Assembly: GCA_020724585.1 (NCBI GenBank)
Contig: DYGS01000001.1
Coordinates: forward strand, 674,535 to 738,534
Origin: Candidatus Microgenomatus sp.
GTDB lineage: Bacteria > Patescibacteriota > Microgenomatia > UBA8517
Reading direction: 5' to 3'
Length of the DNA: 64,000 nt
The notes beneath the pieces are model-generated. The model was not told where the DNA came from. It saw nothing but the letters and a program-made list of their open reading frames with translations, and ran no database searches. The position numbers and the translations under genes are program-made. Of the stretch, positions 20,873-22,219 are shown in pieces (within the stretch, counting starts at the first letter, position 1; each line of letters starts with the position of its first letter).

Positions 20873-20998
20873 AAAACTCCAAACTAGAAAAAATCAAAAA
20901 CTCCAAACAAATAAAAGATTAAAAATAAAATATAAAAACTTTTTATTATATAACTTTGAAATTGTCTTGAGTTTTGGAATTTTTGAGTTTTTGAAATT
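20873..20998. repeat. 23S intervening sequence copy A (AT-rich imperfect palindrome with AAAACTCCAAA / GAGTTTTGGAATTTTTGAGTTTTTG arms)
   Basis: Non-rRNA-like AT-rich 125-nt insert whose arms contain the family-A core. Confidence 0.65.
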
Positions 20999-21658
20999 CT
21001 CCGTTCTACAAGCGGATATCTCTAGCTTCGGCACTACATTTAATCCTCGATAAATCTTAGGCGCAATTACTCAATCGACCAGTGAGCTGTTACGCTATCT
21101 TTAAAGGGTGGCTGCTTCTAAGCCAACCTCCTGGCTGTTTGTGAGTAAAAACTTCCTTATAAACTTAATGTAGATTTAGAGGCCTTAACTGAGAGTCAAG
21201 GGTTGTTTCCCTTTTGTCATATCAGCTTAGCCCGATATGGCTGTCTAACTGCCTATTTTTAAGACTATTCGGAGTTTGGTTGAACTGAATTGCTTTCGCT
21301 CTCCAGCCCATCCAGTAGCTCTACCATTCTTAAATTATTGCAGTCGCGGTCCCTAAAGACCTTTCGGGGAGAGCCAGCTATCTCCAAGTTCGGTTGGTAT
21401 TTTGCCGCTAACCACAAGTCATCCCATATCATTGCAACGATAACGGGTTCGGGCCTCCTCCTTCATTTCTGACGGATTCACCCTGCTCATGGTTAGATCA
21501 CTTGGTTTCGGGTCTTCCACTTACTATCTTTTTTCGCACTTTCATACTCGCTTTCGCTATGCATCAGAAGTTAACCTTCTTTATGCAAACAGTAAATGAA
21601 AACTCGCAGGCTCATTCTTCAATAGGCACGACATTACTCACACAAAGCGCGAGTTCTT

Positions 21659-21782
21659 CAAAATTAAAAAATTCCAAAAATCCAAAATTCCAAACAAATA
21701 AAAAGTTTAATATTAAAAATATAAATTTTAATCTTTAAATTGCTTTGAGTTTTTGAATCTTAGATTCTTTGAGTTTTTGAAG
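21659..21782. repeat. 23S intervening sequence copy B
   Basis: About 95% identical to copy C over ~100 nt ('aaacaaataaaaagtttaatattaaaaatataaattttaatctttaaattgctttgagtttttgaatct'). Confidence 0.7.
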
Positions 21783-22098
21783 AGCTTGTGCTTCGCACGA
21801 GCTCTGTCGGTTTGTCCGCAAATAGTTTCAGTTTCTATTTCATTGGGTGTCTCACCCTTCTTTTCACCTTTCCCTCACGGTACTAGTTCGCTATCGGTTC
21901 GTATTTTTATTTAGCCTTGGAGGATGGTTCCCCCGGATTCGCACAAGGTATTTATCTCATGCTACTTAGGAAATCCCTAGGGTCATTTTTAATTTCGCAT
22001 ACAAGATTTTCACTTTCTTTGATTGACCATTCCAGATCATTCTGCTATTAAAAATAATCCCACAGCGGGCTCCTACAACCCCCCAATACGCTGCGCGA

Positions 22099-22219
22099 GA
22101 AAAAACTCCAAAACGAAAAAAATCCAAAACTCTAAACAAATAAAAAGTTTAATATTAAAAATATAAATTTTAATCTTTAAATTGCTTTGAGTTTTTGAAT
22201 CTTTGATTCCTTGAGTTTT
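22099..22219. repeat. 23S intervening sequence copy C
   Basis: Near-identical to copy B. Arms 'aaaactccaaaacgaaaaaaatccaaaactc' / 'gagtttttgaatctttgattccttgagtttt' form a long hairpin. Confidence 0.7.

Follow-up and report, generated by a model that had tools for sequence, protein, structure and literature searches.

The gene for 23S ribosomal RNA (rRNA) of an uncultured, ultra-small bacterium of the Candidate Phyla Radiation (CPR; Patescibacteria) contains three homologous copies of one AT-rich palindromic element, each of which folds as a long hairpin at the tip of a different surface helix of the rRNA and is absent from the genes of relatives that cover its site. The gene lies in a stretch of 64,000 nucleotides (nt) from Candidatus Microgenomatus sp. 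(contig DYGS01000001.1, positions 674,535 to 738,534), a Woesebacteria-like organism; this whole stretch, which has 35.9% GC, is referred to as the window, and all positions are those of the window unless another sequence is named. The three elements are called A, B and C (Table 1). On balance we think it probable that they are paralogous copies of a single AT-rich hairpin intervening sequence (IVS), recently acquired in this lineage and of the type that is excised by RNase III.

A search with Rfam placed a bacterial large subunit rRNA on the minus strand at 19484-22564 (LSU_rRNA_bacteria, 1826 bits), and the elements appear in that alignment as unaligned insertions at model positions ~285 (C), 583 (B) and 1218 (A), with 142 nt inserted against 4 at position ~285. 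A repeat search of the window returned one three-copy direct-repeat family, at 20873-20990, 21660-21777 and 22102-22219, in which B and C are 91% identical and A reaches 61% without gaps. When the cores were aligned, 98 of 102 bases (96%) were found to be identical between B and C, including a non-repetitive central part, GCAATTTAAAGATTAAAATTTATATTTTTAATATTAAAC, that is the same in both, while A, the most diverged copy, is ~75% identical to either with gaps allowed. Smith-Waterman local scores were compared with those of 2000 dinucleotide-preserving shuffles, and gave z values of 16 (A-B), 20 (A-C) and 40 (B-C); no shuffle reached the observed score. This result confirms that the homology of the three segments goes far beyond chance. 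The GC content inside the elements is 17-18%, compared with 40-58% in the neighbouring rRNA. Every copy begins with AAAACTC and ends with GAGTTTT, the basal few pairs of A differ from those of B and C, and none of the three contains an open reading frame (ORF). The original prediction, made from the letters of the window, had described three related AT-rich segments unlike rRNA, with B and C ~95% identical over ~100 nt, and both statements are borne out. Its coordinates hold for the AT-rich cores; the complete inserts are somewhat larger.

In the RNA sense each element folds as a long hairpin, with z values of -6.7, -3.0 and -6.0 across the three copies and fold energies, flanks included, of -62.1 (A), -54.1 (B) and -61.8 kcal/mol (C). 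Folded with its flanks, each hairpin is a co-axial continuation of the native helix, ~70 bp in length, and RNAalifold identified a shared stem of 47 pairs across the copies, in agreement with the earlier claim that the arms can pair into a long hairpin. Rfam models of group I and group II introns gave no match at E<=1 over 20800-22300, and the only other Rfam matches over the elements at E<=1 were sub-threshold plant microRNA-precursor models, that is, generic long hairpins.

The helices were placed by alignment of the gene to E. coli rrlH together with the Rfam consensus structure. Element A lies in the loop of helix 45 (H45; E. coli 1163-1184), B in H25 after E. coli nt 543, and C is flanked by E. 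coli nt 270 on one side and by the 5' strand of H16 (271-274, pairing with 363-366) on the other. The Rfam consensus draws a hairpin at site C between GCCCAAAC and H16, which, from the consensus structure and the E. coli numbering, we read as H15. This hairpin is not present in the E. coli 23S rRNA, and in Mycobacterium and other bacteria H15 is a named site of expansion (PMC5737476). The classical IVS helices are 9, 25 and 45, and H15 is not listed among them (PMC4990558). Elements B and A thus occupy classical IVS sites, where a long stem-loop stands in place of a short loop as is typical of IVSs (PMC4990558), and C occupies a non-classical one. The expectation of the original prediction that the elements would map to helices 9, 25, 45 or 63 held for B (25) and A (45) and failed for C.

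The 23S genes of relatives were retrieved via homologs of an intron-encoded LAGLIDADG protein and of a syntenic TrwB-like gene, both encoded in the window. Four of the relatives span all three sites: L036, L037, L030 and L041, the last being the complete genome CP129472.1 (80-92% 23S identity). L036, L037 and L041 share the synteny, with the TrwB-like gene beside the 23S gene; L030 was found through its LAGLIDADG homolog, and no TrwB-like gene was seen in it. At every one of the three sites, all four relatives have short hairpins with loops of 3-5 nt. In L036 these are GCAAGC-UUUUA-GCUUGC at H45, GCCAGAA-UUUA-UUCUGGU at H25, where the loop of the relatives is 3-4 nt, and a 12-bp stem with a UUCG loop at H15. 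For the closest relatives, with TrwB amino-acid identities of 87% (L042) and 84% (L038), the contigs end before H25 and cover the first 700 nt of the 23S gene, and so bear on site C only; both lack C and have 19 nt in place of the 132-nt element. The segments are indeed foreign to conserved 23S sequence, as had been proposed. Neither of the two outcomes that would have spoken against the original prediction, an alignment of the segments to the conserved 23S sequence of relatives or a lack of mutual similarity, was observed. As judged from these comparisons, the elements are lineage-specific insertions that replaced terminal loops, and the complete insert boundaries in Table 1 are those defined from the empty sites of the relatives.

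Another CPR 23S gene, L034, has a 124-nt AT-rich insert in H25 (5796-5919 of L034). This insert was considered as a copy of B and rejected, since its interior is unrelated and the likeness is confined to the base, where the 23 nt of CAGAGCTCGTGCGAAGCACAAGC (21784-21806) in B are matched at 20 of 23 positions. Because this base is common to both genes, an extension of H25 probably preceded the arrival of the AT-rich element. A likeness between the bases of B and C (GTGCG..GCACAAG) was likewise rejected as part of the element, because comparison with L036 identifies it in C as the native H15 stem.

Table 1. Positions of the three elements, of the parts of the interrupted 23S gene and of arm-like stretches in protein-coding genes of the window
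Feature	Position	Strand	Description
Element A	complete insert 20862-21011 (150 nt)	minus	AT-rich core 20873-20998; native H45 stem strands 21012-21019 / 20854-20861
Element B	complete insert ~21647-21797 (~150 nt)	minus	AT-rich core 21659-21782; in H25
Element C	complete insert 22095-22226 (132 nt)	minus	AT-rich core 22100-22219; native H15 stem strands 22227-22240 / 22081-22094
23S first exon	19494..22564	minus	Rfam model positions 1 to ~2532; host of all three elements
First downstream 23S insertion	LAGLIDADG_2 ORF 18731-19351	minus	after ACCUCGAUGU; 206-aa LAGLIDADG protein in window
Second downstream 23S insertion	LAGLIDADG_1 ORF 17857-18312	minus	sub-threshold Intron_gpI at 17770-17913
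Pth (peptidyl-tRNA hydrolase) arm-like stretch	48861..48921	minus	nhmmer E=4e-4, pattern match, Pfam, homolog alignment
RecF arm-core motif	55365..55394	minus	exact 15-mer; 6-9 extra residues vs solved RecF structures
ATP-dependent DNA ligase arm-like A-rich repeat	52237..52290	minus	15-mer, 1 mismatch; no net insertion vs homologs

We assign the elements to the IVS type because they fit the definition of an IVS in where they lie, in their shape, size and base composition, in having no ORF and in their sporadic occurrence. Two of them are located at helix tips used by IVSs (H25 and H45), each forms an extended stem-loop continuous with its host helix, the distribution among relatives is sporadic, and intron features are lacking. 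A low GC content has been reported for other IVSs as well. Bacterial 23S IVSs are removed by RNase III without religation of the rRNA (PMC4990558, PMC8708148). By analogy, RNase III would cut the basal stem of each ~70-bp AU-rich duplex after transcription and the ends would not be rejoined, leaving a mature 23S rRNA in approximately four pieces, which the remaining stems and the ribosomal proteins would keep together. The pieces would measure ~340, ~300 and ~635 nt, with a 3' piece of ~1.7 kb once the two downstream introns had been removed. The family may have spread inside the gene by copying at the DNA level from helix tip to helix tip, whether by template switching between hairpins, by ectopic recombination or by some other mobility function, and copies would survive solely at positions at which an insert or a break is tolerated by the ribosome. 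The 96% identity of B and C suggests that the copying or gene-conversion event that links these two is recent and that A is older. We infer that DNA-level copying between hairpin tips is somewhat more likely than classical transposition.

A second family of inserts was found in L032, another CPR 23S gene, which has its own two-copy hairpin family at 4574-4740 and 5355-5531 of that sequence (~170 nt each), after E. coli nt 262 and around nt 840-853. Each insert is bounded by CCATCTCA...GAGATGG and folds as a long hairpin, and their mutual similarity has a z value of 14; in sequence the family is unrelated to the three elements of the window. Paralogous inserts within one gene were thus present in two of the seven distinct CPR 23S genes examined. 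The L032 family implies that intragenic multiplication of such hairpins is not unique to the genome studied here; the multiplication of IVS-like hairpins within a gene looks recurrent in the CPR, and the count suggests a process that is common in the phylum.

Several points weigh against the IVS interpretation. Excision and fragmentation of the rRNA are what we infer by analogy with IVSs of other bacteria. The RNase III signature E[FYWRL][LVIM]GD is absent from the six-frame translation of the 64-kb window, although the window makes up ~9% of the 744-kb genome and its absence there is uninformative. The search for further copies covered 72 kb of the same genome. No target-site duplication is seen at the junctions of A, B and C when they are set against the empty sites of the relatives, no flanking microhomology is present beyond GC...GC, and there is no associated ORF. 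The use of H15 as an IVS site is not reported in the literature that we searched, and in mycobacteria the extensions of both H15 and H25 are kept as expansion segments (PMC5737476).

The original prediction had also likened the element to a miniature inverted-repeat transposable element (MITE). Our searches do not support this comparison, given the lack of target-site duplications, of a full copy elsewhere in the 72 kb of the genome that were examined and of any convincing copy in public collections. The DNA examined for copies consisted of the window plus 8.2 kb to its right, taken from L046, a JGI contig that is 100% identical to the window, for a total of 72 kb; on the left, the outermost ORF had no match on record from which to extend. 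These 72 kb, of which the window was searched with a profile built from the three copies, hold no full copy other than those in the 23S gene. Terminal inverted repeats (AAAACTC...GAGTTTT) are present trivially, since the whole element is palindromic. No transposase was found among the 10 window proteins scanned, the window not being fully annotated for transposases. A degenerate 26-nt pattern of the 3' arm was also run against the GTDB representative genomes, and a 24-nt version of it against JGI metagenome contigs and IMG/VR. No convincing copy of the element, and no relative carrying it, was found in any of these collections by the arm pattern. The matches that were returned (two in genomes, 23 in metagenomes and 0 in IMG/VR) all lie outside rRNA, and are at best weak, pattern-driven resemblances, mostly to intergenic AT-rich hairpins. 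Since all of them lie outside rRNA, the 23S gene from which the pattern was taken is absent from those collections. Some of the matching metagenome contigs carry long, AT-rich intergenic hairpins made of AAATCC/AAATTC-type words (L008 at 7452-7588, L013 at ~1310-1480, L015, L020 at 3659-3763, and L028), with L008 resembling L020 and L013 resembling L015. These hairpins may represent a widespread class of palindromic intergenic repeats, and are at most candidate homologs of the IVS element.

The core of the element arms, GAGTTTTGGATTTTT (15 nt), occurs seven times in the window with at most one mismatch, against 0.08 occurrences expected. Three of the seven are outside the rRNA, in the genes for Pth, DNA ligase and RecF, all within 7 kb, which agrees with the earlier observation that the arm core also occurs inside protein-coding genes. 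These matches, half-arms of 15-50 nt, fall in variable surface loops of the proteins and are not inserted elements. No full palindromic in-frame copy of the kind represented by the Rickettsia palindromic element (RPE) was found in these coding genes, the extra length being 8-13 amino acids in Pth, 6-9 in RecF and none in the ligase. The Pth stretch matches the search pattern taken from the 3' arm of the element at 24 of 26 bases, so that it reads as a 5' arm in the mRNA sense, and the loop in which it lies is hypervariable and longer here than its counterparts in the closest homologs. A link between the Pth stretch and the elements is possible but unproven; in general, the patches in coding genes could be short conversion patches, remnants, or the result of a shared mutational bias. 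Directly upstream of the A-rich stretch, the Pth coding region contains a perfect GC-rich 16-nt palindrome, CTGCCTGCGCAGGCAG, at 48922-48937, and together the palindrome and the A-rich stretch encode the extra loop residues SACAGRSKNPKIQNSK. An intergenic hairpin is located at 50745-50828, between the ligase gene and the next gene, and may be a terminator; its arms hold AAACTCAAAAC/GTTTTGAGTTT, the same word as the arms of the IVS.

The main rival to the IVS interpretation is that the elements are retained expansion segments, AU-rich helices that protrude from the surface and remain part of the mature 23S rRNA. The hairpins do prolong native helices co-axially, the mycobacterial H15 and H25 expansions offer a precedent for retention in the ribosome, and E. 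coli ribosomes tolerate an IVS that is left unprocessed (Gregory et al. 1996, cited in PMC8708148). However, absence from all sampled relatives, the closest included, argues against a conserved structural role, and the extreme AT content and long, near-perfect duplexes are of the type that RNase III uses as a substrate. Furthermore, the experimentally studied H25 and H45 inserts of such size and shape are all excised (PMC4990558, PMC8708148). Given the empty sites of the relatives and the AU-rich duplexes, we consider retention the less likely outcome and, taken by itself, unlikely. That the elements are instead self-splicing or protein-spliced introns, with religated exons, might be supposed from the two LAGLIDADG-bearing insertions downstream in the same gene, one of which has a sub-threshold group I match, and from the intron-rich nature of CPR rRNA genes. 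Simple hairpins of 120-150 nt that lack an ORF and any group I or group II match at E<=1 make this highly improbable, as does their location in helix loops and not at the conserved sites of the core that rRNA introns occupy (PMC11270868).

A non-autonomous mobile element that occurs genome-wide, MITE- or RPE-like and served by a transposase encoded elsewhere, would have left the rRNA copies and the coding stretches as the survivors of selection. Several features fit such an element: a palindrome with inverted ends, three copies at unrelated sites, the arm core in three coding genes far above expectation, the 6-13 additional residues of Pth and RecF at the arm-core positions, and the intergenic hairpin with AAACTCAAAAC/GTTTTGAGTTT arms. 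Set against these are junctions that are all free of target-site duplications, the lack of a full copy outside the 23S gene in the window and the adjoining 8.2 kb, and the lack of a convincing copy in GTDB, JGI or IMG/VR. In addition, the stretches in coding genes are half-arms, that of the ligase is not an insertion, and no transposase is linked to the family, so we regard this origin as rather improbable. A chance or low-complexity resemblance, or an artefact of assembly such as a collapsed or misplaced repeat, comes to mind because the arms are made of A-rich, quasi-repetitive words and because rRNA regions are hard to assemble from metagenomes. It is scarcely credible in view of the shared non-repetitive centre, identical in B and C, and of the score that none of the shuffles attained. 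Each copy also has its own flanks and extends a different native helix in register, and B and C differ at 4 positions, which shows that they are not a collapsed repeat.

The closest known counterparts are the H25 and H45 IVSs of enterobacteria and Campylobacter (Salmonella, Yersinia, Proteus/Providencia, Campylobacter), which likewise measure ~90-150 nt, lack an ORF, are AT-rich relative to rRNA, form an extended stem-loop in place of the short H25 or H45 loop, and are sporadic among relatives. In those bacteria, excision by RNase III gives a fragmented, functional 23S rRNA (PMC4990558, PMC8708148, PMC2801512). The family in the window differs in occupying three helices of one gene, H15 among them, and its excision is a prediction. 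In the literature that we searched, the H25 and H45 inserts of one organism have been treated as separate elements, and homologs elsewhere have usually not been found (e.g. PMC2672173). Within the CPR, a survey of 348 23S genes by Tsurumaki et al. 2024 described many short non-intron inserts at 23IS2 and 23IS4, which were called probable RNase III-type IVSs (PMC11270868); IVSs are already suspected at H25 and H45 in the CPR. These share with our elements the bacterial group, the size class of <200 bp, the lack of intron features and of an ORF, and the known IVS sites. The survey reported no relatedness between the sites of one gene, whereas the window and L032 both show intragenic paralogy.

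The Mycobacterium expansion segments are extensions, on the solvent face of the 50S subunit, of the same surface helices H15 and H25 (PMC5737476). They are conserved in the genus, GC-rich and retained, with contacts such as a kissing loop and bL9, while the elements of the window are rich in AT, homologous to one another and missing from close relatives. The H45 IVSs of Leptospira and Coxiella are similar in site, in having terminal inverted repeats that serve as a processing stem, and in selfish behaviour, and differ in their length of 430-760 nt and in encoding S23p (23S_rRNA_IVP), our elements having no ORF. A free-standing gene for a 141-aa protein of the 23S_rRNA_IVP/bAvd family (PF05635, PF22296) does exist in the window, at 60861-61286 on the minus strand and far from the rRNA genes; the family is otherwise known from ORFs inside the Leptospira and Coxiella IVSs. 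The RPE, which Ogata et al. reportedly described in 2000 and 2002, is said to be a palindromic repeat of ~100-150 bp that resides inside functional genes at tolerant positions. RPEs and MITEs resemble our elements as palindromic, non-coding repeats of ~100-150 bp in a functional gene, and through the arm-like sequence found in frame in variable protein loops; unlike them, the family of the window has no full copies in the coding or intergenic DNA of the 72 kb and no target-site duplications, the comparison being one of description and not of sequence. The literature that we searched, mostly non-subscription and without the original Salmonella, Proteus and Helicobacter work, contained no paralogous IVSs at different helices and no MITEs in 23S genes. 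One IVS family at three helices of one gene, H15 as a site, and the 15-nt arm core in three protein genes look new.

The 23S gene itself is longer than its main Rfam match. The apparent 3' end at 19484 is an artefact of the alignment, which breaks after ACCUCGAUGU (model position ~2532, E. coli ~2500), and the gene runs downstream to ~17400 through two LAGLIDADG-bearing insertions (Table 1). The exon with the sarcin-ricin sequence is a separate Rfam match at 17541-17699 and adjoins the 5S gene. The Intron_gpI match in the second insertion scores 34 bits, compared with a gathering score of 50. The LAGLIDADG insertions between the 23S pieces indicate that the gene was already heavily interrupted, a condition that is typical of the CPR (PMC11270868). 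A fourth lineage-specific extension of the 23S rRNA, of ~50-57 nt, is present at 22341-22403 in helix H10 (E. coli ~171); this extension forms a hairpin of 24 bp with an ordinary GC content, and its sequence is unrelated to the three AT-rich elements.

The other rRNA genes were also located with Rfam, 16S rRNA at 28697-30280 and 5S rRNA at 17222-17358. The 5S rRNA of 137 nt barely exceeds the Rfam threshold (39.4 vs 38 bits) and has 29 nt where the model has 11. The 16S match (minus strand, region 27619-28697) breaks at GUACACACCG (E. coli ~1400), with 99 model positions skipped, and a LAGLIDADG_1 ORF at 27867-28361 lies directly downstream of the break, which corresponds to 16IS9 of Tsurumaki et al. 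2024, a frequent insertion site in the CPR; no 3' exon of the 16S gene was located. Between the 16S and 23S genes, on the plus strand at 25492-27618, is the TrwB-like gene used for the retrieval of relatives, which encodes a homolog of TrwB/TraG-like type IV coupling proteins (DUF8128, DUF87, TrwB_AAD_bind). Its placement is conserved in L036, L037, L038, L041 and L042. In CPR metagenomes the family is represented by >5000 close homologs, and the nearest homologs bear names such as Candidatus Woesebacteria and Patescibacteria group bacterium.

IVSs in 23S genes have been known since 1990, and how they originate and spread has gone unexplained. The proposals made so far speak of a 'remnant of transposition' or of 'horizontal transfer' (PMC4990558). 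The locus described here offers a natural before-and-after series, with a single-copy gene, a pair of copies that are 96% identical, and empty sites in the sampled relatives, and it indicates that an IVS can multiply within a genome. Repeats of this kind inside an rRNA gene break short-read assemblies, and complicate both 23S phylogeny and the design of probes for the CPR. It is tempting to go further and to speculate, with considerable doubt, that the IVS hairpins of the CPR are active, self-propagating palindromic DNA that copies itself between the tips of rRNA helices, to three sites here and to two in the unrelated L032 gene, and seeds short in-frame patches in the variable loops of proteins. 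If true, this would provide the first direct view of the origin and spread of rRNA IVSs, a question that has stood open since their discovery, and would point to a mode of mobility that needs neither target-site duplication nor transposase, perhaps template switching from hairpin to hairpin.

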